Origin: a virus
Taxonomy: Duplodnaviria; Heunggongvirae; Uroviricota; Caudoviricetes
Strand: one strand, 5' to 3'
IMG/VR virus record: IMGVR_UViG_2703718839_000007
DNA length: 12,029 bases
This document shows, piece after piece, positions 1 through 11,982 of the stretch. Numbering within the stretch: the first letter of the stretch is position 1; each line of letters begins with the position of its first letter. A program made the position numbers and the translations under genes. The notes under the pieces are model-generated. The model saw only the letters and a program-made list of their open reading frames with translations, did not search any database and was not told where the DNA came from.

Positions 1-20
1 ATTGACAGATTGAATCTACA
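1..20 (-). mobile_element. Possible terminal inverted repeat of an IS30-family element; the element body would lie outside the window
   Basis: Reverse complement of 1-20 reads TGTAGATTCAATCTGTCAAT, close to the IS30 terminal repeat as I recall it (TGTAGATTCAATTGGTCAAC). It replaces the expected 3' end of the adjacent IS3-family orfA. Recall-based and short. Confidence 0.3.
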
Positions 21-283
21 GTAGCCTTTTTTAATATTTCATTCTCCATTTCAATGCGTTGTAGCTTTTTCCTCAGCTTACGTATTTCGATTTGTTCTGG
101 TGTTATCGGAGAGGCTTTTGGTGTTTTGCCCTGACGCTCATCACGCAGTTGTTTGACCCATCTTGTCATTGTGGAAAGGCCAACATAGATAGCTTTGGCG
201 GCATCTGCCACCGTGTATGTCTGGTCAACAACCAGTTGAGCGGATTCGCGTTTAAACTCTGCGCTAAAATTTCTTTTTTTCAT
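21..283 (-). CDS. insN: IS3-family transposase OrfA (InsN-like helix-turn-helix protein), C-terminally truncated
   Basis: Minus-strand ATG at 283-281. Translation reads [88 protein letters not shown], then diverges from IS911 OrfA where the IS30-like repeat begins. Confidence 0.7.
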
Positions 284-355
284 TGGAGCACCTGTGTTGT
301 TCTGAGGTGAGCATATCACCTCTGTTCAGGTGGCCAAATTCAGTAAACCACTTCA
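21..355 (-). mobile_element. IS3-family insertion sequence, IS911-like left end (terminal repeat, leader and most of orfA), truncated or interrupted near position 20
   Basis: Minus-strand terminus at 355 begins TGAAGTGG...TGGCCACC, typical of IS3-family ends (5'-TG). The orfA start lies about 70 nt inside, and the orfA product is near-identical to IS911 InsN as recalled. Confidence 0.7.
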
Positions 356-375
356 GAGCAGACGAGACAAAAAGA

Positions 376-948
376 ATGGTTGACGCATCAGCTCAACCCC
401 ATATAGTTGTAACACTTGAGCCAAACCCTTGGGCCGCTTTTTACTTTGATATTAACATTGCTAATACAGGGAACGCACCTGCCTATAATGTTGAGGTTGT
501 GTTTGATCCTCCACTAGTAAATGCGGAGCATAGAGAAAAAAGTGAGATTCCGTTTAGTAAGGTAAGCGTGTTAAAAAATGGGCAATCACTTACCAGCAAT
601 CTCTGTAAGTATGAACAAATCAAAGATCAAATTTATAATATTAATATAAGCTGGGCAAGCAAACCTAAATCAAACGATAGAGAAACAAATGAATATGTGT
701 ATGACATGGCGACATTTGAAGGAATAAGTTATCTAGGAGCGAGAAGCCCATTGACGCAAATTGCAGAACAAATTAAAGGTATAAGAGAGGATTGGAAACC
801 TATTGCACAAGGAGCTAAAAAAGTAAAAGCAGACGTATATACTTCAAGCGATAGAAACGAAGAACGCACGTATCTGCAAGAGCAACACGATTTGGCAATA
901 AAAAGGAGAGATGAGAAAAGAGAAAAAAGATTAGAGTCTGGTGAATAA
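376..948 (+). CDS. Hypothetical protein (190 aa from ATG 376); AT-rich accessory gene, possibly 5'-truncated by the adjacent IS
   Basis: Uninterrupted frame to TAA at 946-948. The six-frame ORF starts at a TTG at 283 inside the IS, so the first ATG outside the IS (376) is taken as start; its ribosome-binding site is weak. N-terminal beta-rich segment followed by a charged K/R/E/D-rich C-terminus. No family recognised. Confidence 0.5.
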   Translation: MVDASAQPHIVVTLEPNPWAAFYFDINIANTGNAPAYNVEVVFDPPLVNAEHREKSEIPFSKVSVLKNGQSLTSNLCKYEQIKDQIYNINISWASKPKSNDRETNEYVYDMATFEGISYLGARSPLTQIAEQIKGIREDWKPIAQGAKKVKADVYTSSDRNEERTYLQEQHDLAIKRRDEKREKRLESGE

Positions 949-957
949 TTTTAAAGG

Positions 958-978
958 GAGTGGGTAACTAACCCACTC
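958..978. terminator. Stem-loop between convergent genes, candidate terminator mainly for the minus-strand gene
   Basis: GAGTGGGT (958-965), loop AACTA, ACCCACTC (971-978): perfect 8-bp stem. On the minus strand it is followed by a T/A-rich tract (CCTTTAAAATTATT). Confidence 0.4.
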
Positions 979-996
979 GTAACTATAAACCTGTAA

Positions 997-1821
997 TTAA
1001 TCACTTATTTTTGACAACAGATAATTACTGAACGCACTGCAAGTGACTAACATAAATTTAGCTTCAGCTAAGGTAGGATTTACATCTTCTTCTGTTAGCG
1101 CATGACGTATTCCACCCTGATCACTTGTATAACCATAGAGCTGACTAAAAGCGCCTTTCATTGCAGAGTGTATATATCCTTTTTCCTCTATAGCTTTAAG
1201 ACAAGCCCCCAAGGTTCCTTTATCATTGCCCGTGATTTTCCTGCATAAAGATTCAATTGCAGAGATAGACTCTTTAATCGAGTTTCTGTAGTCTGGCTGC
1301 TCTCTATCCGTCATTAGTTGTAACGCCCTTTCGAAATGGCTACGCGATGAATCAGTGCCATTATCAACTGCGTTCTGAACACTTTCAATTTCGTTATCAT
1401 TTGAAATAGGAGTAATACAACCATTTATTATGGTATAACCAACGCCATGCTTTTTAAAGATGGAATTGAGATGCTTCGATAGATTAATATATGAATTAGT
1501 TCTCTCAATGATGAACTCAATTAAATCATATACCAAATACCATGCTTCCCCATATATATAATCTCGGATAGCAGTCAGCAACGTCTTATCACTTTTGTAT
1601 CCACTTTCATAACGAGGAATATTATCCGCAGGTTGATTTAGATAATATATCCACACAGACTGCGCACATTTTGTTGCTGTAGCAGTTTGACGATTGTTAG
1701 TCCAAAGGAAAAGATATAAGCAATTCCACAATGCCATGCGTGTATCAGAATTAAGATCATTCAGCTGGACATGCTCTCTAACGTCAACATGACCATACCT
1801 CACAGAAAATGGCTTTATCAT
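997..1821 (-). CDS. Hypothetical protein (274 aa), AT-rich accessory gene; possibly abortive-infection-like, unverified
   Basis: ATG at 1821-1819 preceded by GGGGAAGA; stop TAA at 999-997. Sequence composition differs sharply from the GC-rich satellite core. No catalytic motif recognised confidently. Confidence 0.6.
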   Translation of the reverse strand: MIKPFSVRYGHVDVREHVQLNDLNSDTRMALWNCLYLFLWTNNRQTATATKCAQSVWIYYLNQPADNIPRYESGYKSDKTLLTAIRDYIYGEAWYLVYDLIEFIIERTNSYINLSKHLNSIFKKHGVGYTIINGCITPISNDNEIESVQNAVDNGTDSSRSHFERALQLMTDREQPDYRNSIKESISAIESLCRKITGNDKGTLGACLKAIEEKGYIHSAMKGAFSQLYGYTSDQGGIRHALTEEDVNPTLAEAKFMLVTCSAFSNYLLSKISD

Positions 1822-2354
1822 TCTTCCCCTGCCTGATTGTTATGTTCGTTTAAATTATGCAGTCTAAGTTTGATACAATCATATATTAAGCAATAGAATC
1901 CATAAAGCCCCGTTGGTGGTAAGACAACAAGCGGAGCCTCTTGCGACTTCATCAGGGTTATGTCAGTTAGTGAGGCTTATCAGGATGACCATGTACCCAA
2001 GGGGAGCGAGGCCGAACCGCTGGCAGAGCTTGCATATGGTCTGCAAGTACCGTGACCACCATAAACCTGTTTATCCCCTGCGGCGTCTCGCGACGGCGAC
2101 AGAATGGGGGCATCGGGCTAAAATGCGCTGCACTAAAAGTTTTGGGATTGTTTAGAGACGGTGGCTACGTCATAGCTTTCAAGTTGAGTCAGTACGTGTT
2201 TGACGCTTGGAACGACACGCCGCTATGAGTTAACATCCCAATTACCACTATCAACCACAGCGGCTTTTTCAAGGGACATAACAGAGCATTTCTTACAGGC
2301 AAAAGAGACAGATTTAATCGTCTAACTAACTGTATTGTAAGGAATTTAGTAACT

Positions 2355-2377
2355 TGGTGCGAAGGCCGGACTCAAAC
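2355..2377 (-). other. att core: partial copy of a tRNA 3' end (tRNA-Leu/leuX-like), the likely satellite-host junction
   Basis: Minus strand reads GTTTGAGTCCGGCCTTCGCACCA, i.e. T-arm, acceptor 3' strand and CCA, differing at two positions from the leuX 3' end as recalled. The upstream sequence is not tRNA-like, so this is a partial repeat rather than a tRNA gene. P4 integrates at leuX with att adjacent to crr/alpha. Confidence 0.55.
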
Positions 2378-2921: not shown

Positions 2922-5255
2922 TCAGGTTGTTGCAGGGTCGTCACATTTTGGCAGCCAGTCGCCGTAGCTTTCCTCTTTCAGCGTCAGGTTGGTCTGTATC
3001 CCCTGTTTGGTATGGCGCTTCTCGTAATTCAGTCCGTATTCTTTCAGCATCACCGGCAGCCCCAGCCCGAACATTTTCAGACTGAGTACATTCCGGTAGC
3101 CGTTTGCCTCCATGTAGGCCAGATAGGCGTGATAGAGGTATTTACGGTAATTACGCGGGATGATACTGGCGTTCCCCATATACATGCCGCTGGTCTGCGG
3201 CAGGGTTTCCAGATAGCCGATAAAATCAAACGTCGGGTCGGCATCCCGTTTGATGTTCAGTGCCTCGTCTGAGTTCTGCTGGGACTGAAGCAGTGACCGG
3301 GCGAGCATCGGGTCGCTGAACTTCTGCATCAGGTGACGCACGATGACCGCCAGCTCGCGGGTGATTTTGTCCTTAAGCTGCGGGTCGCGCTCCTGCGGGG
3401 CTATCTGTTCCGGGAAGTGAATAATCACCCGCCGGCGTGACACGCCGCCGCTGCGGTCGGTGAAGCGCATCGGGTTATTGTTCACGGCCAGAATCACCGC
3501 CGGGATGTGCGTGGAGTACGCATCCCGGTATTTCGGGTCAACGGACACTGCATCGCCGCCGGTGATGGCCTTGAGTCCGGCTCCGTCGCCGCTCCATTTT
3601 TCCTGGTCCGGCAGGCGTATCAGTGAGAAGCCAGTTAACGCGGCACGTTCACGCGGGGATTCCAGCGTCTCAATGGTGGCCGACGTGGCGTTATCCTCCC
3701 CGGCCAGCAGGGTGGCTATTTCGGCCATGATACTTTTGCCGCTGCCGCCGGGACCGGTCACCTCCAGAAAGAGCTGCCAGTCGTAGCGGTTTGCCAGCAC
3801 CATAAACAGTGCGGCCAGAATCACGTCGCGTTTTTCCGCACGGCCACCGGCGGCACGGTCAAGCCAGCGCCAGAACGCGGGGGCGTGGGTTTCCAGCGTT
3901 TCCCCTTCCACCGGCGGGGTGAAATCCACATCGCACAGGGTGCGCATCCAGTGTGACGGACTGTGCGGGTGGAACGTGCCGTTCTGCGTGTCGAGCACGC
4001 CGTTACGAAAGCCAATCAGGCGGCGGGAGGGGGCTTCCTGCTGCGGAATAATCAGCTTCAGGGTGTCCACCACGGAGGCCACCTTCCCGGAGGAGAACGG
4101 CGCGCGCAGCCGCTGAAACAGCCCGGCCACATCCCGGGCAAAGTCCTGTGGTGGCAGCACCTTCCAGACACCATTTTCATAACGGGACAGAAGCTGGCCG
4201 TTGGCATCAACCGCGAGCGCCTCGCCGTAATGCTCATAGATACGCATGGCCTTTTCGCTGGTACTCATGGCGGAAAACTCCGCTTCGCTCATGGTGTCGA
4301 ACGGGCTTTCAGCCGGTGGCCGGATGGCATCATAAATGGCCTTACGGGTGGCTTCCCCGCCGTACTGCGTGAAGGCATCATTCCAGTCACCGAAGACCGG
4401 CGGCAGGGCAACAACACCTTCACACGCATCTGCGGCTGCGGCGGCTTTTTTCTGGCCGTCACCGCTGAGGTCACGGTCTGCGGCAAGGACAATCTGACAG
4501 GCCGGATGCTTCTGCCGGGCAAGGCTGGCCAGAGAAAGGAGGTTCACGGAAGAAAGCGCCACCATCACCGTTTCACCGGTCAGGTGATGCACGGTAAGTG
4601 CGGTCGCGTATCCCTCCGCTATCCACAGACGTTTTCCGGCCTGATTCTGTCCTTCAAGGGTGTGACAGGTGCCCCTGACCTGTCCGCCTTTCAGGGTACG
4701 CTTACGGCCGTCAGCACTGATTAACTGAAGGTTAACCAGTTCGCCGCTGTCGTCATACAGTGGCACCACAAGGTCACCGGCGCGCCAGCTCACGCCACCG
4801 GCTCTGTGTGTGCCGGTCAGCATCCGGCATTCCCGGCCGGGAAAGCCCTTGCGGGTCAGGTAGGCGTTACCGGTTCCGGGACGGGTTTTCGCCATCAGGG
4901 TTTGTGCCAGTGCGGCGGCGTTCTTCCGGGCAGCGTCTGTTTCAGCAACGGCGGCGGTCGTCACTGCCGGGTCAGCCGGTGGCAGGCTGCCGGTCACGGC
5001 AGCCACCTTTGCGGCCGCGTCGGACGGGGAAACACCAAACACCTTTTCAACCAGTTTCAGGCCGTCACCGGCACCACACTGATTGCAGTACCAGGTGCCG
5101 CGCCCCTCCCTGTCATCAAAACGGAAGCGGTCACTCCCGCCACAGACCGGACAGGGCTGATGACGGTTCTTCAGCACCTGAATCCCCAGCGCCGGGAGAA
5201 TACGCGGCCAGTGGCCGAGCGCATGGCTGACGGTGGCGGTTACGTTCATTTTCAT
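2922..5255 (-). CDS. alpha: P4 alpha-type replication protein: primase, SF3-like helicase and origin-binding domains (777 aa)
   Basis: ATG at 5255-5253 preceded by AAGGAG. N-terminal zinc motif CPVCGGSDRFRFDD...YCNQCG, primase motif EGYATALTV, Walker A GPGGSGKS. Length 777 aa equals P4 alpha as recalled. Iteron clusters lie on both sides. Confidence 0.93.
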   Translation of the reverse strand: MKMNVTATVSHALGHWPRILPALGIQVLKNRHQPCPVCGGSDRFRFDDREGRGTWYCNQCGAGDGLKLVEKVFGVSPSDAAAKVAAVTGSLPPADPAVTTAAVAETDAARKNAAALAQTLMAKTRPGTGNAYLTRKGFPGRECRMLTGTHRAGGVSWRAGDLVVPLYDDSGELVNLQLISADGRKRTLKGGQVRGTCHTLEGQNQAGKRLWIAEGYATALTVHHLTGETVMVALSSVNLLSLASLARQKHPACQIVLAADRDLSGDGQKKAAAAADACEGVVALPPVFGDWNDAFTQYGGEATRKAIYDAIRPPAESPFDTMSEAEFSAMSTSEKAMRIYEHYGEALAVDANGQLLSRYENGVWKVLPPQDFARDVAGLFQRLRAPFSSGKVASVVDTLKLIIPQQEAPSRRLIGFRNGVLDTQNGTFHPHSPSHWMRTLCDVDFTPPVEGETLETHAPAFWRWLDRAAGGRAEKRDVILAALFMVLANRYDWQLFLEVTGPGGSGKSIMAEIATLLAGEDNATSATIETLESPRERAALTGFSLIRLPDQEKWSGDGAGLKAITGGDAVSVDPKYRDAYSTHIPAVILAVNNNPMRFTDRSGGVSRRRVIIHFPEQIAPQERDPQLKDKITRELAVIVRHLMQKFSDPMLARSLLQSQQNSDEALNIKRDADPTFDFIGYLETLPQTSGMYMGNASIIPRNYRKYLYHAYLAYMEANGYRNVLSLKMFGLGLPVMLKEYGLNYEKRHTKQGIQTNLTLKEESYGDWLPKCDDPATT

Positions 5256-5269
5256 GGTGTTGTTCTCCT

Positions 5270-5590
5270 TCAGTGCAGTACCGGCGCTTTTATGTGACGG
5301 GCACAGAGTTCATCCATCACAACCAGCCCGAGAAAGGACAGCGACGGCGCGGCCTTCAGGGGGCCGGATTCCATTAAATCTTCCAGCAGGGCACAGGCTA
5401 TCTGACGCCCTTTTTCCTCACCGTGCTGGCGCAGATAAAAGCCTTCCAGCTCAGCGGCGATGGCCGCCTCCAGTGATTCAAGGGTGAGATGCGGGTAGCG
5501 GTGCTGACGTTCGCACACGGTCAGCCAGGCACAGGCGACAGCGCGACGGTAAAGGGCAGCGCGTAAGACGGGCGGTAAGGGGGTTTTCAT
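5270..5590 (-). CDS. Small protein of the alpha operon (106 aa), P4 orf106-like; function unknown (a copy-number-control role is only a guess)
   Basis: ATG at 5590-5588 preceded by GGGAGG at 6-nt spacing. Stop is 14 nt upstream of the alpha start, same strand. Confidence 0.7.
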
Positions 5591-5725
5591 TTGTTTTCCT
5601 CCCTGTGACAGATGACTGCATTCCGTGCCGGTTGCATTAACTGATAAGGCATATCTGCGTCTCCTGAAGACGTGCGTATCCCTGCGCGAATACGCACATT
5701 TAATTTTTCGGGTGTCGTTTTTTAA

Positions 5726-6181
5726 TTACAGATAATTGCGGTAACTGTTATCCGGGGTGATTTCCGGGTCAGGCTCCGTGCGGGGAATTTCCCGCCATTC
5801 CCGCGCCACCGGTGCCGCCCGGCTGACCGGAACAGGGTCCTGCGGGTAAATATCCAGATATTTCTCCCGCCATTTCTGTAATTCCGGGTCTCCGGCCATT
5901 TCTTTCAGTACCGCATGCCGGTTTACGGGGCTGCGTCTGAACAGGTCAGGACGGTCACAGGTAAATTCCCGCAGAAAACGCCCCAGCGGGATGTCTGTGG
6001 TGCGCCCGTCAGCGAGGATACGCACAAGGATACTGAATTTACGGCGGTACGGGTTCCAGACAATTTCCGGGCAGCGGTACGGCATTTCCCACGGAATACC
6101 GTCTTCCAGAATGCCGACCACGGCCACATCGGGAAAACCGGCAGAACGGTAAATCTCACCGGGCTGGGGAAAATCAAACAT
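5726..6181 (-). CDS. Hypothetical protein of the alpha operon (151 aa), P4 orf151-like
   Basis: ATG at 6181-6179 preceded by AGGA. Start overlaps the stop of the upstream gene (ATGTTTGA), indicating translational coupling. Confidence 0.7.
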   Translation of the reverse strand: MFDFPQPGEIYRSAGFPDVAVVGILEDGIPWEMPYRCPEIVWNPYRRKFSILVRILADGRTTDIPLGRFLREFTCDRPDLFRRSPVNRHAVLKEMAGDPELQKWREKYLDIYPQDPVPVSRAAPVAREWREIPRTEPDPEITPDNSYRNYL

Positions 6182-6461
6182 GCGTCCTGTCTCCCCGGTC
6201 TTGCTGCTGGGCGAGAAAATCGCGGCACAGGCCTTTGGCTTTCAGCTCATTCAGCACAAAATCAATATCTTCATTCAGGTAGCTGAAAATATGCGGAATG
6301 TAGAGCTGATGCAGGCCGGAGAGTTCACGGTGAATCAAATCACCCCCAACAAACTGGGATACGGCGCTGGCGCGGTTGAGCTTATGGTAAGCCTCAATGC
6401 TGAGGTGTTCACGGGCGTCATGACGCGCTGAGACGGTCTGAGGGGCTTTTTTATTACGCAC
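6174..6461 (-). CDS. Epsilon-like small protein (95 aa), candidate P2-derepression (anti-repressor) protein
   Basis: There is no in-frame ATG after the upstream stop, but a GTG at 6461-6459 sits 6 nt after GGAGG (6472-6468), giving a 95-aa product. That equals P4 epsilon length as recalled. Stop overlaps the start of the 151-aa gene. Confidence 0.55.
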
Positions 6462-6651
6462 GGGACACCTCCACCACCGGCAGACGGGCAGCAAGGGAGA
6501 GCACATAGTCACGGACAAGGGAACGGCGGGCGCTGCGTTCATCACCGGCGACGGTGCGAAGCATGCAGATACGGGGATGACGGTCTGCGCGACGGACAGC
6601 CGCAAACACAAAGACAAATTCAGGGTGTGAGGGGGTAAGGGTTGTAGCCAT
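6454..6651 (-). CDS. Small protein (65 aa), first well-supported translated gene after the leader; kil-like by position (unverified)
   Basis: ATG at 6651-6649 preceded by GGAGG at 8-nt spacing; stop TAA at 6456-6454. The same frame is open upstream to an ATG at 7053 (199 aa), see findings. Confidence 0.5.
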
Positions 6652-6984
6652 GATGGCAGCCTCCTGTGAATAGCAAATAACGCTATCGCCGGAGTTTCCA
6701 CGCTCGATGGCGATAGCCCAGACGGGGGTGGAAATACCGGCTTCACAGGATACCGGCCAGCCCGGAGGCTGCCCCGCCTGAGCTACCATTGACTCTGCGG
6801 CATAATGAGCGGACGCGGGCAGGATGCACGGAATGCCATCTGCACGACTGACCACACACCACACCATAATCTGGCGCTCTGTGGCGTTGATTGCGACACA
6901 AAAAAAGACGCATGGCGCGTCATATGTCGCCTGTGAATTGCTCGGGTTTCCACGCCCGGCTGCCGATTTTGCGGCAGCGGAAAA

Positions 6985-7014
6985 ACTATATCCGCAAATG
7001 CCGGAAAAAGGCAA
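6985..7014 (-). promoter_or_regulatory. Candidate sigma-70 promoter (PLE-like) reading leftward into the leader and kil/epsilon/alpha operon
   Basis: Minus strand: -35 TTGCCT (7014-7009), 18-nt spacer, -10 TATAGT (6990-6985), about 60 bp downstream of the vis stop. Pattern match only. Confidence 0.3.
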
Positions 7015-7049
7015 GCCAGAAAAAGGGAGTTTTTGCAGAGCGGGCATCA

Positions 7050-7316
7050 TCATGCGTCATACCCCCGTTTGCGTCCGGCAATGCGGCCGGCCATCCATGC
7101 GGTGACTTCAGAGTGCAGCCAGGCCACATTTTTACCGCCAAGACTCACCTGCGGCGGAAATTCCCCCTTACGGATGAGTTCATAGATGGTCGAGCGTGAC
7201 AGGCCGCACAGGTGCATCACTTCCGGCAGACGTAAAAAACGCTCCTGCGTGATGTCCGGCAGCGGCATCAGTGGCGTCACAGGGGCGGGAGACGGGGAAG
7301 AAAAAACAGCTTGCAT
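7050..7316 (-). CDS. vis: Vis/AlpA-family DNA-binding protein (88 aa): excision and late-promoter regulator of P4-like elements
   Basis: ATG at 7316-7314 preceded by GAGGT. Helix-turn-helix region [27 protein letters not shown] is typical of the AlpA/Vis family. Length 88 aa equals P4 Vis (orf88) as recalled; it is the first gene downstream of the leftward late promoter. Confidence 0.8.
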
Positions 7317-7418
7317 CGGGCTACCTCGTTAATGTCCATACAGCACCGGATAAGTCCGTCCGGCTTCGGGTAGCGCTTTATTTTGTGAATATTTTCGGCA
7401 GACGCAACAGGGGGGATT

Positions 7419-7436
7419 TGTTCCGGCAGCCTTACA
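7419..7436 (-). promoter_or_regulatory. Delta/Ogr-type activator site (TGT-N12-ACA) of the leftward late promoter (PLL-like)
   Basis: TGTtccggcagccttACA at 7419-7436. A site centred near -55 would put the leftward start near 7372, upstream of vis (ATG 7316). Confidence 0.45.
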
Positions 7437-7460
7437 ATGCTTGTGTATTTTTTGTTCATC

Positions 7461-7490
7461 TCCACTTAAAGTCATTTAAAGCCACTTAAA
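7461..7490. repeat. Three tandem 10-bp repeats, a candidate protein-binding array
   Basis: TCCACTTAAA / GTCATTTAAA / GCCACTTAAA in exact 10-bp register (one helical turn), in the vis-sid intergenic region. Confidence 0.5.
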
Positions 7491-7595
7491 GCAATTCGTA
7501 ATTTTTATAGTGAAATACAAATCGTTTCTTCTTATTCATTCCCGGCGAATTAATAAAAACAAACAGTAGTAAACAGCACAAAAAGTCCATGAGCG

Positions 7596-7700
7596 GGTGA
7601 ACAGTGGTGAACAGACGGTGAACAGTCATTACTGCGATTGTTCACCCTTTAACTTACTGTATTACTTATCTTTTTTCTTAAGGTGAACAGAGGTGAACAG
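7596..7700. repeat. Second type I iteron cluster (ori-like) between the divergent late promoters
   Basis: GGTGAACAG at 7596-7604, 7606-7614, 7617-7625, 7682-7690 and 7692-7700, plus an inverted TTGTTCACC at 7638-7646. Same octamer as the crr-like repeats about 4.9 kb away; P4 ori and crr are about 4.5 kb apart. Confidence 0.65.
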
Positions 7701-7778
7701 TAAAATATAAAAAAACAAACAGTAAGCCGGTTTTTCCTGCGACCTTTTCCTGGCTTGCCGGTCTGAGGATGAGTCTCC

Positions 7779-7836
7779 TGTGTCAGGGCTGGCACATCTG
7801 CAATGCGTCGTGTTGTTGTCCGGTGTACGTCACAAT
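7779..7836 (+). promoter_or_regulatory. Psid-like late promoter with two TGT-N12-ACA activator sites
   Basis: TGTgtcagggctggcACA at 7779-7796 and TGTccggtgtacgtcACA at 7817-7834, centres 38 bp apart (about -55 and -17 relative to a start near 7843). A -10-like CACAAT lies at 7831-7836. P4 late promoters are reported to carry a second delta site near -18. Confidence 0.5.
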
Positions 7837-7868
7837 TTTCTCAACCTGAAGTGACGAGGAGCCGGAAA

Positions 7869-8603
7869 ATGTCTGACAACACCATCCCTGAATATCTGCA
7901 ACCCGCGCTGGCACAACTGGAAAAGGCCAGAGCCGCTCATCTTGAGAACGCCCGCCTGATGGATGAGACCATCACGGCCATTGAACGGGCAGAGCAGGAA
8001 AAAAATGCGCTGACGCAGGCCGACGGAAACGACGCTGACGACTGGCGCACGGCCTTTCGTGCAGCCGGTGGTGTCCTGAGCGATGAGCTGAAACAGCGCC
8101 ACATTGAGCGCGTGGCACGCCGGGAGCTGGTACAGGAATATGACAATCTGGCCGTGGTGCTGAATTTTGAATGTGAACGCCTGAAAGGGGCGTGTGACAG
8201 CACGGCCACCGCCTACCGGAAGGCACATCATCACCTGCTGAGTCTGTATGCAGAGCATGAGCTGGAACACGCCCTGAATGAAACCTGTGAGGCGCTTGTC
8301 CGGGCAATGCATCTGAGCATCCTGGTACAGGAAAATCCGCTCGCCAACACCACCGGCCATCAGGGCTACGTCGCGGCGGAAAAGGCTGTCATGCAGCAGG
8401 TGAAATCATCGCTGGAACAGAAAATAAAACAGATGCAAATCAGCCTCACCGGCGAGCCGGTTCTCCGGCTGACCGGACTGTCAGCGGCAACACTCCCGCA
8501 CATGGATTATGAGGTGGCAGGCACACCGGCACAGCGCAAGGTGTGGCAGGACAAAATAGACCAGCAGGGTGCAGAGCTTAAGGCCAGAGGACTGCTGTCA
8601 TGA
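7869..8603 (+). CDS. sid: Sid, capsid size-determination external scaffold protein (244 aa)
   Basis: ATG at 7869 preceded by GAGGA at 8-nt spacing, downstream of the late promoter. Coiled-coil-like and alanine/glutamate-rich. Length 244 aa equals P4 Sid as recalled. Stop overlaps the delta start (ATGA). Confidence 0.85.
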   Translation: MSDNTIPEYLQPALAQLEKARAAHLENARLMDETITAIERAEQEKNALTQADGNDADDWRTAFRAAGGVLSDELKQRHIERVARRELVQEYDNLAVVLNFECERLKGACDSTATAYRKAHHHLLSLYAEHELEHALNETCEALVRAMHLSILVQENPLANTTGHQGYVAAEKAVMQQVKSSLEQKIKQMQISLTGEPVLRLTGLSAATLPHMDYEVAGTPAQRKVWQDKIDQQGAELKARGLLS

Positions 8604-9100
8604 TTTACTGCCCGTCGTGTGGACATGTTGCTCACACCCGCCGCGCACATTTCATGGACGATGGCACCAAGATAATGATTGCACAGTGCCGGAATATTTA
8701 TTGCTCTGCGACATTTGAAGCGAGTGAAAGCTTTTTCTCTGACAGTAAAGATTCAGGAATGGAATACATTTCAGGCAAACAGAGATACCGCGATTCACTG
8801 ACGTCAGCCTCCGGCAGTATGAAACGCCCGAAAAGAATGCTTGTTACCGGATATTGTTGTCGGAGATGTAAAGGCCTTGCACTGTCAAGAACATCGCGGC
8901 GTCTGTCTCAGGAAGTCACCGAGCGTTTTTATGTGTGCACGGATCCGGGCTGTGGTCTGGTGTTTAAAACGCTTCAGACCATCAACCGCTTCATTGTCCG
9001 CCCGGTCACGCCGGACGAACTGGCAGAACGCCTGCATGAAAAACAGGAACTGCCGCCAGTACGGTTAAAAACACAATCATATTCGCTGCGTCTGGAATGA
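8600..9100 (+). CDS. delta: Delta, late-gene transcriptional activator with tandem Ogr-like zinc fingers (166 aa)
   Basis: Two Cys clusters (CPSCGH...CRNIYC and CCRRC...CTDPGC), consistent with a fused dimer of Ogr-like domains. Length 166 aa equals P4 delta as recalled. Confidence 0.85.
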   Translation: MIYCPSCGHVAHTRRAHFMDDGTKIMIAQCRNIYCSATFEASESFFSDSKDSGMEYISGKQRYRDSLTSASGSMKRPKRMLVTGYCCRRCKGLALSRTSRRLSQEVTERFYVCTDPGCGLVFKTLQTINRFIVRPVTPDELAERLHEKQELPPVRLKTQSYSLRLE

Positions 9101-9173
9101 GGGCTGCCGGTTAACACCGGCCGTCGCCGCACACCGTATTTTTATTCTTCAGCATGATGAGAAAGAGATAACG

Positions 9174-9746
9174 ATGGAAAGCACAGCCTTACAGCAGGCC
9201 TTTGACACCTGTCAGAATAACAAAGCAGCATGGCTGCAACGCAAAAATGAGCTGGCAGCGGCCGAACAGGAATACCTGCGGCTTCTGTCAGGAGAAGGCA
9301 GAAACGTCAGTCGCCTGGACGAATTACGCAATATTATCGAAGTCAGAAAATGGCAGGTGAATCAGGCCGCCGGTCGTTATATTCGTTCGCATGAAGCCGT
9401 TCAGCACATCAGCATCCGCGACCGGCTGAATGATTTTATGCAGCAGCACGGCACAGCACTGGCGGCGGCACTGGCACCGGAGCTGATGGGCTACAGTGAG
9501 CTGACGGCCATTGCCCGAAACTGTGCCATACAGCGGGCCACAGATGCCCTGCGTGAAGCCCTTCTGTCCTGGCTTGCGAAGGGAGAAAAAATTAATTATT
9601 CCGCACAGGATAGCGACATTTTAACGACCATCGGATTCAGGCCTGACGCTGCTTCGGTGGATGACAGCCGTGAAAAATTCACTCCTGCGCAGAACATGAT
9701 TTTTTCGCGTAAAAGTGCGCAACTGGCATCACATCAGTCTGTGTAA
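9174..9746 (+). CDS. psu: Psu, polarity suppression and capsid decoration protein (190 aa)
   Basis: ATG at 9174 with an upstream GAGA/AAGAG; position after delta and before cos. Length 190 aa equals P4 Psu as recalled. Confidence 0.8.
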   Translation: MESTALQQAFDTCQNNKAAWLQRKNELAAAEQEYLRLLSGEGRNVSRLDELRNIIEVRKWQVNQAAGRYIRSHEAVQHISIRDRLNDFMQQHGTALAAALAPELMGYSELTAIARNCAIQRATDALREALLSWLAKGEKINYSAQDSDILTTIGFRPDAASVDDSREKFTPAQNMIFSRKSAQLASHQSV

Positions 9747-10055: not shown

Positions 10056-10367
10056 ATGCGCGATAAATTCATTGATGCCATTCATAGTTGTTTAAAAATT
10101 CAGCTAACTTTTTATTCAAAAGAAGATAACGCGACAATCACAAGATTAACTGCGCCTATGGACTTCGGTCCTAGTCGTAGAGCTCATGATAAAAGTGACA
10201 GATTCCATTTTTGGGATTACGAAAGCGATAAAAAAAGTCATGTTCTCAGTTTGCAACCTGAAGCGATTGTATCTCTAGTTGTAATCCCTCAAAACTTTCA
10301 TCCGCAAGAGTTTGTTAGCTGGACGCCAAACTGGTTTATTGCCAGAGATTGGGGCCAGTACTCTTAA
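10056..10367 (+). CDS. Hypothetical small protein (103 aa), stand-alone cargo gene in the post-cos variable region
   Basis: ATG at 10056 preceded by AAGGAG (10045-10050); stop TAA at 10365-10367 followed by a terminator-like hairpin. AT-rich relative to the core. Soluble, aromatic-rich; no family recognised. Confidence 0.7.
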   Translation: MRDKFIDAIHSCLKIQLTFYSKEDNATITRLTAPMDFGPSRRAHDKSDRFHFWDYESDKKSHVLSLQPEAIVSLVVIPQNFHPQEFVSWTPNWFIARDWGQYS

Positions 10368-10564: not shown

Positions 10565-11080
10565 ATGTTAAATAAGCTTGCCAAATATCTTCTTACTGCC
10601 AGCTCAGTTGCTCCGGTATTTTTTACCTTAGCTTTTCTTTCATGTATATCAAAACACTATAAATTTATGATTGCTTACTTATCATTGTGTGCAATTATAC
10701 TTTTACTGTGTGTTTTGATTGTTAAATACGCAATTAAATATAATTCTGTAACCAGTAAAAAATTAACTACCGCCTCTCCAGCAGATAAGGAGATAACAAA
10801 TTATTTCTTAACCTATTTATTTCCCTTAATCAGTGGTCCAGATGCATTTATGGATATTAGGATTGCTTCTTTCTTTGCTGTGAGTTTATTTTTTTACATC
10901 AGTTTTTCAGGTTCCTACAGTTTCAACCCATTATTATCATTTTGGGGATATAAATATTATGAAGCCGAAGACGATACAGGCGTAAGCTTTGTTATATTAT
11001 CGAAAAAGCCACTGTTAAAAGCATCAGGCAATCGTGTTAATTTGATTAAGCTTACTGATTACACATATATAGCAATATAG
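10565..11080 (+). CDS. Small integral membrane protein (171 aa, about 4 predicted transmembrane helices), first gene of a two-gene cargo operon; candidate defence component (KwaA-like architecture, unverified)
   Basis: ATG at 10565 preceded by AAGGAGG. Hydrophobic stretches at roughly residues 9-28, 34-57, 80-92 and 99-117, with a soluble C-terminal tail. Stop is 8 nt before the next gene. Confidence 0.75.
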   Translation: MLNKLAKYLLTASSVAPVFFTLAFLSCISKHYKFMIAYLSLCAIILLLCVLIVKYAIKYNSVTSKKLTTASPADKEITNYFLTYLFPLISGPDAFMDIRIASFFAVSLFFYISFSGSYSFNPLLSFWGYKYYEAEDDTGVSFVILSKKPLLKASGNRVNLIKLTDYTYIAI

Positions 11081-11088
11081 GAATAAAT

Positions 11089-11982
11089 ATGGAACTGTTT
11101 GCAATAACAGATAATACAGTTGGCACACGCATTGTAAAAATTGTTACTGACAGGCCGACTCAAAATGTAATCACACAGCTATTCAATGAACAAAAAACTT
11201 TTTTTGAAGAACGCTATACAGAAGGCGTAGAATTTTCAGGTGGCTACATCACTAGTGGAGATGAGTTTTTTGTCATTCCTGACTTTGATGATGTTATCGC
11301 TGTATTAGATGCTATTAATAATCCCACAACTATCCCTCCATGGGAGCCGGAAGAAATATCAGTCTTCAATATAATCGCTCTGTTTTCAGGCTATCCTGAA
11401 GAGGATGGAAAACCTGCAACTGCCTTAATCCAAAGCTTCGATAAAAGGCAAGTTATTGATAACAGAAGAACAATTTTCCAAAAACCATTTCAGGCAAGCA
11501 ATACCTTTTGCCAGTCTACTGAGCATGGTATAGTCATCGACAATAAGCTAACAGCTATTCTTGCAGGTACAGAATTAAAGTTTAAAAGCTTCCATATGCT
11601 CCGCAGGATATTTGATGTAGATGCTTATTTCAGAGAAGCCACTAATGAAGAATTAACAAGTTTTTCTTCTCATGAAAAATTTTCAGTAGCTCCGGGTTTT
11701 GATTTAACAACAATTGCTGACTCTGTTATTAGAAAGAAAGTTTCCTTGATTAATAAATCAAGAATACTTGAGGACTACTCTGTGACTGAGTTAAGAATAT
11801 CAGCGGCTGAAATTGGTGTTGTTCTAGAAACTGAAAAAATCGGTGAATTAGAAAAAATAAAAATGCCGCAAATAAGAAAAGATGTAAAAAGATTATTGCA
11901 TTTTTTAGATGAGGACTATTTCACATCCCATATAACCAGAACGCTATATCGCGCAAACTCTAAACGTCGAGAAGATGTTTAA
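11089..11982 (+). CDS. Soluble protein (297 aa) co-transcribed with the membrane protein; candidate defence component (KwaB-like by size and context only)
   Basis: ATG at 11089, 8 nt after the upstream stop, with AGGA upstream. No nucleotide-binding or nuclease motif recognised by eye. AT-rich. Confidence 0.75.
   Translation: MELFAITDNTVGTRIVKIVTDRPTQNVITQLFNEQKTFFEERYTEGVEFSGGYITSGDEFFVIPDFDDVIAVLDAINNPTTIPPWEPEEISVFNIIALFSGYPEEDGKPATALIQSFDKRQVIDNRRTIFQKPFQASNTFCQSTEHGIVIDNKLTAILAGTELKFKSFHMLRRIFDVDAYFREATNEELTSFSSHEKFSVAPGFDLTTIADSVIRKKVSLINKSRILEDYSVTELRISAAEIGVVLETEKIGELEKIKMPQIRKDVKRLLHFLDEDYFTSHITRTLYRANSKRREDV

Follow-up and report, generated by a model that had tools for sequence, protein, structure and literature searches.

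Genes and features at the leuX-proximal end

The stretch of DNA analysed here (the window: 12,029 nucleotides, IMG/VR record IMGVR_UViG_2703718839_000007) carries two neighbouring genes near its left end, one encoding 190 amino acids (aa) on the plus strand and one encoding 274 aa on the minus strand. Segment 1-2900 is the leuX (tRNA-Leu) island region of Escherichia coli, and was found by megablast at a coverage of at least 80% in 453 complete E. coli genomes. In annotated loci, the left part consists of the fec operon, debris of the insertion sequences (IS) IS30 and IS3, a 190-aa 'hypothetical/DUF8453' gene, and a gene for a 274-aa 'AbiJ-NTD4 domain-containing protein'. To the right lies a P4-like satellite (primase, Icd-like, Delta-like, Psu, cargo, integrase), followed by tRNA-Leu, ahr, and yjgR. 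We consider it probable that the two genes belong to the remnant of an older leuX island, in which an AbiJ-NTD4/HEPN candidate of the abortive-infection type adjoins the relic of a DUF8453 gene. The features are listed in Table 1.

A preliminary description of the sequence had recorded two convergent, AT-rich open reading frames (ORFs) that share a hairpin, and all of this was borne out. The G+C fraction is 0.375 in the plus gene (376-948) and 0.372 in the minus gene (997-1821), versus 0.562 in the satellite core (2922-9746). Both ORFs are real and not chance frames, since they have thousands of homologues and ratios of nonsynonymous to synonymous substitution rates (dN/dS) of 0.10-0.12 versus the Enterobacter copy. 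The hairpin lies between the two stop codons, in a 61-nt intergenic stretch that gave folding energies of -15.2 and -15.8 kcal/mol (z scores of -2.3 and -3.1 versus shuffles). It was not called by a terminator scan, because the stem lacks a following T-run; a partly U-rich tail comes after it in the minus-strand transcript only. The same hairpin is present, without a single change, in two other AbiJ-bearing loci (L004 and L020), and is absent from the AbiJ-less loci L019, L018, and L015. Transcripts of the AbiJ cassette probably end in this structure. At the other end of that cassette, the sequence preceding the ATG of the AbiJ gene plausibly serves as its ribosome-binding site.

Table 1. Features of the leuX-proximal region in window coordinates
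Feature	Position	Strand	Details
IS3-family element, left end	1-355	-	OrfA codons 1-94 at 283-2; terminal inverted repeat ends ...CCACTTCA at 355
Native coding remnant upstream of the internal Met	356-375	+	In frame (R)ADETKR, corresponding to conserved LLA-x-ETKR of intact homologues
Putative relic of a DUF8453/phrog_11802 gene, 5'-truncated	376-948	+	190 aa as annotated, WP_000227281
Intergenic hairpin	958-978		8-bp stem GAGTGGGT / ACCCACTC, 5-nt loop AACTA
Intact gene for the 274-aa AbiJ-NTD4 + HEPN-fold protein	997-1821	-	WP_000594911; PADLOC candidate PDC-S32
HEPN-fold domain, predicted ribonuclease (RNase) effector	1000-1359	-	Residues 155-274
R239-H240 dyad codons	1102-1107	-	Just after helix-3, the canonical place of Rx4-6H in other HEPN domains
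AbiJ_NTD4 domain, predicted sensor/regulatory	1363-1812	-	Residues 4-153, Pfam
Upstream region of the AbiJ gene and right end of the variable cargo block	1822-1889	-	GGGGAAGA-ATG
leuX-proximal conserved spacer, no annotated gene	1890-2354		Common to loci with different cargo
Distal attachment (att) repeat of the P4-like satellite	2355-2377	-	tggtgcgaaggccggactcaaac, near-copy of the leuX 3' end tggtgccgaaggccggactcgaac

The 274-aa protein joins an AbiJ-NTD4 domain to a HEPN fold

Searches with profile hidden Markov models (HMMs) of defence families, which had been proposed as a check, returned AbiJ_NTD4 and PDC-S32 for the minus gene. The 274-aa protein matched the PADLOC models of PDC-S32 over its full length (PDLC04997, 5.6e-104 over residues 3-272; PDLC04996, 1e-86), and its residues 4-153 matched the 152-position model PF18863 (AbiJ_NTD4) at 5.8e-27. 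All 83 of its 83 homologues also matched AbiJ_NTD4. AbiJ_NTD4 goes back to a computational study of 2013, which described it as a domain predicted to be sensory or antitoxin-like and joined to AbiJ-type HEPN domains (PMC3710099), and the alpha+beta secondary structure in our model of the N-terminal domain agrees with that description. The PDC systems are 145 candidates that were selected for having members embedded in BREX, DISARM, or type I restriction-modification (RM) loci, and the set is described as 'single- and multi-gene' (10.1101/2024.01.29.577857); we read the 'S' of PDC-S32 as 'single', that is, as a single-gene candidate. The window gene thus shares with PDC-S32 both the full-length HMM match and the single-gene architecture. 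It differs in its setting, a cargo slot of a tRNA island, whereas the PDC-S32 models come from clusters with a BREX-, DISARM-, or type I RM-embedded member.

The C-terminal domain was modelled as a four-helix up-down bundle with an insert between helices 2 and 3, which is consistent with a HEPN fold. When invariance was scored over the 83 homologues, down to 39% identity, twelve polar residues proved invariant: H162, D177, R179, N180, K183, E184, S185, S187, E190, H218, R239, and H240. Residues E184 and E190 lie in helix-2 (178-197), in which HEPN domains have a conserved acidic residue (often Ex3[KR]) and the query reads E190-S-L-C-R194, and H218 lies in the insert between helices 2 and 3. 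R239 and H240, each present in 83/83 sequences, follow helix-3 (219-233 in the model). Compared with the Enterobacter copy, the AbiJ gene has a synonymous divergence (dS) of 0.24 and a dN/dS of 0.12; taken separately, the N-terminal domain gives a dN/dS of 0.19 and the HEPN domain one of 0.02.

The best structural match of the model was AF0298 (2hsb), and AbiV (9bj5), also of the alternative-His class, was among the best matches. The AbiJ alignment, used as a profile against PDB sequences, gave nothing significant. HEPN families with variant motifs are documented, and the alternative-His variant in AbiV and AF0298 is regarded as possibly active (PMC3710099). These two are stand-alone HEPN proteins without NTD4, their sequence identity to the window protein is 10-18%, and the adjacency of R and H is specific to the family of the window protein, unlike AbiV and AF0298. 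A variable N-terminal domain joined to a C-terminal HEPN fold is likewise found in Lactococcus AbiJ and Staphylococcus aureus SadR (PMC13590631). The AbiJ-NTD1-5 set, to which the N-terminal domain of the window protein belongs, was defined on AbiJ proteins, and the window gene, like theirs, is mobile-element cargo. In SadR, an Abi_C HEPN protein with RNase activity, mutation of the motif abolishes this activity as well as defence (PMC13590631). The R-N-x5-H motif of SadR is replaced in the window protein by G-G-I-R-H without a spacer, and the R-polar-x(3-5)-H pattern validated in SadR does not occur in it. Abi_C (PF14355), in contrast to the AbiJ family, does not match it.

To judge from its family, the NTD4 domain would keep the HEPN domain inactive until a phage-derived cue is met. 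Metal-independent RNA cleavage by the HEPN domain, probably in dimeric form, would follow and lead to growth stop and aborted infection. The centre would be non-canonical, with R239-H240 at the motif position and H218 and E190 probably contributing in the manner of AbiV and AF0298; the domain may be an active RNase built on the R-H dyad and the insert His instead of Rx4-6H. The reading as an anti-phage RNase is supported by the twelve invariant polar residues, by the position of R239-H240 after helix-3, and by the dN/dS of 0.02 in the HEPN domain. Further support comes from the occurrence of the gene as mobile solo cargo and from the precedent of SadR, an Abi_C RNase.

Several results weigh against this reading. 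A conserved Rx4-6H motif is absent: R-x(4-6)-H occurs within the last 125 residues in 8/83 sequences, at differing, non-conserved places. Abi_C was matched neither by the full protein (E<=1), nor by its C-terminal 121 residues (E<=10), nor by any of the 83 homologues (E<=0.01); a precomputed PF14355 label on a few database homologues was not reproduced when we scanned P0104 and P0119 ourselves. Because Rx4-6H is not conserved and Abi_C was undetected, catalytic competence is not assured. On the minus strand, the sequence preceding the AbiJ gene showed no consensus promoter. The PDC systems are called untested by their source (Payne et al. 2024 preprint, 10.1101/2024.01.29.577857), and a literature search on PDC-S32, P2-EC53, DUF8453, WP_000227281, and WP_000594911 yielded no relevant paper. 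Finally, the AbiJ gene was found in 469 of 5,426 complete E. coli genomes, in 468 of them at an identity of at least 99%, and such near-identical copies reflect recent spread and are not proof of selection within E. coli.

The 274-aa protein could accordingly be taken for something other than an anti-phage RNase, either a non-catalytic HEPN binding module or the product of an island maintenance or addiction gene, and we regard this as unlikely but deserving of attention. It would account for the absence of the canonical motif, as HEPN families losing the motif can be non-catalytic substrate-binding domains (PMC3710099), and it agrees with the setting of the gene in the window, which lies outside any RM or BREX locus, and with the lack of a relevant paper in the literature search. 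The concentration of the invariant polar residues, three His and two Arg among them, in a HEPN domain with a dN/dS of 0.02 is more what one would expect of an enzyme than of a scaffold. The R-H dyad at the motif position is retained in a distant phage homologue (RHEph01 gp056), the best structural matches include the possibly active alternative-His class, and the clusters behind the PDC-S32 models have members embedded in defence loci; all three points speak against a non-catalytic or maintenance role. A type II toxin-antitoxin pair is not indicated either. RnlA and LsoA, the toxins of such systems, have a cognate antitoxin gene, whereas the window gene has no antitoxin-like partner: its neighbour is convergent, of different evolutionary history, and dispensable, and no small ORF upstream of the AbiJ gene is annotated in RefSeq.

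With the anti-phage RNase as the preferred reading of the minus gene, the suggestion of the preliminary description that the locus holds defence or toxin-type cargo stands as a prediction for both genes. The minus gene is an AbiJ-NTD4/HEPN candidate of PADLOC, and the family of the plus gene occurs in the Z region of P2-like phages. Both genes had already been catalogued; the earlier interpretation is supported and the novelty is low. Among the strains with the AbiJ gene are E. coli C, Nissle 1917, and members of O26 and O111, and O103 and ATCC 25922 have adjacent parts of the module. A candidate defence gene in such widely used E. coli (C, Nissle 1917, O26/O111 enterohaemorrhagic strains) could affect phage host-range experiments, and a non-canonical R-H HEPN centre would be a small test case for active-site flexibility. 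Current ideas are not challenged by the locus, and its practical value is modest.

The 190-aa gene is a 5'-truncated member of the DUF8453/phrog_11802 family

The plus gene was suspected to have lost its 5' end to the neighbouring IS, and comparison with related loci confirmed the truncation. Residues 1-94 of an IS3-family OrfA are encoded on the minus strand at 2-283 (NF033516, 1e-13), and the end of the element at 355, which reads ...TTCA, agrees with the terminal TG...CA of that family. RefSeq labels 1-355 'transposase, incomplete'. By its OrfA and left inverted repeat sequences, the element is presumably IS911-like. It stops 20 bp before ATG376, and nucleotide homology to the intact Enterobacter locus (L004) begins at 357, just past the IS end. 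In alignment with homologues of 228-235 aa, about 37-38 N-terminal residues are missing, and the window copy is homologous only from about family residue 38 onward. The sequence before ATG376, GAGACAAAAAGA, has no Shine-Dalgarno element, in agreement with the weak ribosome-binding site noted earlier; the native start of intact homologues reads GAGGGAGAAGA-ATG and has GAGGGAG, a good ribosome-binding site. The first 37-38 codons, which encode a membrane helix, have thus been lost together with the native ribosome-binding site and the promoter, and the part kept is modelled as a 7-strand beta-sandwich with C-terminal helices. Intact copies exist in Enterobacter (L004, 234 aa), at leuX in E. coli E2348/69 (L019, 230 aa), and in P2-like prophages. 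In four E. coli loci, neither the missing 113 bp nor the upstream serine-recombinase gene turned up at distances of up to about 12 kb from the IS debris; the event was therefore an IS-associated deletion and not a simple insertion.

The family is phrog_11802, whose positions 1-228 of 230 are matched by the intact Enterobacter allele (P0040) at 1.3e-115; the plus gene is 79% identical to this allele in amino acids. Pfam, NCBIfam, and PADLOC searches with the 190-aa ORF, a 221-aa form extended upstream, and an intact homologue gave nothing beyond phrog_11802. A full-library profile search returned 1,790 representative clusters of the family. Homologues outside E. coli have 228-235 aa, and the additional residues at their N terminus make up a hydrophobic helix, with a Kyte-Doolittle maximum of 1.88 at residues 13-31. 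As the positive charges are C-terminal to this helix, the beta-sandwich is predicted to be cytoplasmic. The AF2 model of an intact member has a long N-terminal helix, a 7-strand beta-sandwich, and C-terminal helices, and its structural matches were generic Ig-like folds.

Phage relatives of the plus gene include ORF1 of P2-EC53 ('putative lysogenic conversion protein', AJ512682) and a gene of phage R18C. In P2-EC53, R18C, and P2-like prophages of E. coli, the DUF8453 gene stands alone between the tail-fibre and tail-sheath genes (Z/fun locus), a site listed as a P2 defence hotspot (PMC13586616). Unlike this Z/fun cargo, the window copy is without the N-terminal membrane helix, and lies in a chromosomal island and not in a tail-gene hotspot. 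An anti-phage or exclusion role of DUF8453 is plausible but unsupported. The inverted repeats annotated around ORF1 in the P2-EC53 record were not recovered by self-BLAST.

Four independent IS junctions were found in DUF8453 genes of different E. coli lineages, at 355/356 (the window copy), 387/388 (TW10722), about 476 (IS600 in O26:H11), and about 710-734 (IS3 in OkiPb01685), and the AbiJ protein beside the IS-struck copies is unchanged. The loci concerned are the window itself (356-948), L002 (about 8001), L028 (2033-3703), and L020 (6152-8117), with the presumed IS911-like element, another IS3-family element, IS600, and IS3 among the insertions. Either the DUF8453 gene attracts insertions as a hotspot, or it is subject to relaxed or negative selection. 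We infer that the gene at 376-948 would be a dead or dying relic, the IS-associated deletion having taken its membrane helix, ribosome-binding site, and promoter. The 190-aa 'hypothetical/DUF8453 protein' of hundreds of RefSeq genomes would then call for a corrected annotation as an IS-truncated relic.

It could be argued that a 190-aa product is still made from ATG376 and works as a soluble protein, with a new function or as a native short isoform. The ORF is unbroken in 476 E. coli genomes at an identity of at least 99%, the Met that opens the short form is internal and nearly invariant across the family, and a few database entries of 190-203 aa (P0075 among them) start at this Met. The high identity, however, points to recent spread and gives no sign of constraint, and short database entries are often fragments from short contigs. 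ATG376 has no Shine-Dalgarno element and no promoter upstream, the sole promoter-like site (380-407) being inside the ORF. The product would also be without the membrane helix that nearly all homologues carry, and three further independent IS disruptions of the plus gene have been tolerated. We consider a functional short protein highly unlikely.

The two genes are probably independent cargo

The preliminary description treated the two genes as a pair. They are indeed convergent neighbours, but the pairing was overstated, as they are better regarded as two pieces of cargo independent of each other. Only leuX islands, in Enterobacter and one E. coli strain, were found to carry the intact pair together with the same hairpin. 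DUF8453 occurs without AbiJ in Klebsiella, Pectobacterium, Citrobacter, Mesorhizobium, E. coli E2348/69, and P2 phages. AbiJ-NTD4 is found without DUF8453 in Klebsiella, where it follows an integrase, in Xanthomonas, where DUF4365 is nearby, and in a Pectobacterium prophage, where it is placed between gpV and gpW. In the Pectobacterium case (L026, 6001-6855), the gene is a moron between the baseplate genes V and W of a P2-like prophage, possibly a further place for cargo among the tail genes.

The two genes also differ in divergence. Versus the Enterobacter copy, the plus gene region has a dS of 1.12 and a dN/dS of 0.10, and its dS is thus far from the 0.24 of the AbiJ gene. From these unequal values it follows that the module is a mosaic, with a breakpoint near 710-734 inside the plus gene. 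We had suspected relaxed or diversifying selection from a protein identity of 78-79% beside a DNA identity of about 90%, and rejected it at a dN/dS of about 0.1 per gene; the discrepancy arises because two unequally diverged genes were averaged. Searches of the same kind gave 4,437 proteins for the family of the plus gene versus 91 for that of the AbiJ gene. The two cargo genes are independent because their dS values are unequal, each is found alone elsewhere, and only the plus gene was struck by IS.

A single, previously unrecognised system, in which a membrane-bound beta-sandwich DUF8453 protein would sense or regulate and the AbiJ-NTD4/HEPN protein would be the effector, therefore has little probability. 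Its basis is the recurrence of the intact pair at leuX in Enterobacter roggenkampii, in the same convergent layout and with the hairpin, and in an IS-split form in E. coli OkiPb01685. A further parallel comes from phage RHEph01, where gp056, a homologue of the HEPN module (probability 99.8%), is convergent with gp054, a transmembrane beta-sandwich protein. We considered gp054 as a DUF8453 homologue and rejected it: it has no sequence homology to DUF8453 (probability 2%), and the likeness is at the fold level only. Convergent transcription is unusual for a single system, and a five-fold gap in dS with a recombination breakpoint inside the plus gene, the unequal family sizes, and the presence of either gene without the other in several genera all speak against one. 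So do an AbiJ gene that stays intact while its neighbour is repeatedly IS-struck, and PDC-S32 being, as we read its name, a single-gene candidate. If the two-component reading were true, 8-9% of E. coli, including E. coli C and Nissle 1917, would carry an IS-decapitated version.

RHEph01 (L021) is a lytic Rhizobium phage of the Autographiviridae, with the two genes at 454-951 and 1246-2121. Its gp056 (165 aa) is homologous to AbiJ residues 117-270 only (probability 99.8%) and has no sensor domain; it carries A-G instead of R179-N180 and keeps the R-H dyad. The protein may serve as a decoy or in counter-defence, unless the resemblance is coincidental.

A swappable cargo slot outside the satellite

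In E. coli E2348/69 and RS571, the place of the AbiJ gene (about 865-1890) is filled by unrelated genes, and the spacer 1890-2377 stays at least 95% identical. Homology to loci with other cargo starts only at 1890/1891, and the spacer 1890-2354 is 95-97% identical to L017 and L019, both with other cargo. From these comparisons, we conclude that the leuX-proximal end of this island family is a swappable att-proximal cargo slot that holds independent genes, the AbiJ-NTD4/HEPN gene and the DUF8453 relic among them.

The window sequence 1822-2354 (533 bp, G+C content 46%) contains no annotated gene and is conserved at 95% or more beside leuX whatever cargo adjoins. A query of 1822-2360, spacer included, was matched by 630 E. 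coli genomes, and an Rfam search of 1822-2355 gave no credible match. This sequence may be an island-end or att-flank sequence. The island backbone consists of a serine recombinase and a helicase-type protein of about 610 aa (DEAD/DEAH domains in L004, L019, and L020). The same backbone occurs at different sites in three genera, at leuX (L004, L019, L020) and adjacent to usp in Klebsiella (L023-L025, L005-L007), and its att-proximal slot holds AbiJ-NTD4, DUF8453, both, or unrelated genes.

The two genes had been placed outside the att boundary of the satellite, with no integrase on their side of it, and satellite-free genomes agree with this on both counts. The att repeat at 2355-2377 is the boundary, with the satellite to its right and the older island remnant to its left, and it separates the two genes from the satellite. 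Homology to Enterobacter and to satellite-free E. coli loci stops exactly at 2377, inside their tRNA-Leu. In E. roggenkampii, a 2-kb module (window 357-2377) with 89.8% nucleotide identity ends inside tRNA-Leu(CAA), and in satellite-free E. coli LR-21-1 the two genes lie 533 bp from tRNA-Leu with nothing annotated between. Since both genomes have the genes at leuX without a satellite, the genes predate the satellite and lie outside it. Positions 356-2354 would thus be the tRNA-proximal remnant of an older leuX island, and the P4-like satellite would have entered the same tRNA later, displacing the remnant. That the genes are instead satellite cargo, in the minor P4 hotspot between the primase gene and one att site that holds 7% of P4 defence systems according to a 2026 survey (PMC13586616), is suggested by their distance of about 1.1 kb from the primase gene, but has next to no likelihood given the att repeat in between, their persistence beside differing P4-like variants whose homology breaks at about 2450, and above all the satellite-free loci, which refute it.

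Other features of the satellite

An ORF at 2372-2707 on the minus strand is called 'integrase' in one RefSeq record. It overlaps repeats and has no Pfam or PADLOC support, and for these reasons the label is probably a mis-annotation. The octamer TGTTCACC occurs 11 times in two clusters (2567-2867 and 7596-7699), versus 0.29 expected by chance, and the first of these clusters falls within a direct repeat of 120 nt (2567-2686 and 2748-2867; 83% identity). We take the clusters to resemble the iterons of the P4 alpha protein at crr and ori. On the minus strand of 6706-6991, Rfam identified a C4 antisense RNA (76.6 bits), isrK (74.9 bits), and a c4-a1b1 target element, which together are the P4-type RNA immunity region of the satellite. 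In the psu-int hotspot, a 103-aa ORF (10056-10367) without a Pfam or PADLOC match precedes a Kiwa system at 10565-11982 on the plus strand, which consists of KwaA (171 aa, PADLOC 1.6e-76) and KwaB (297 aa, 6.5e-117).

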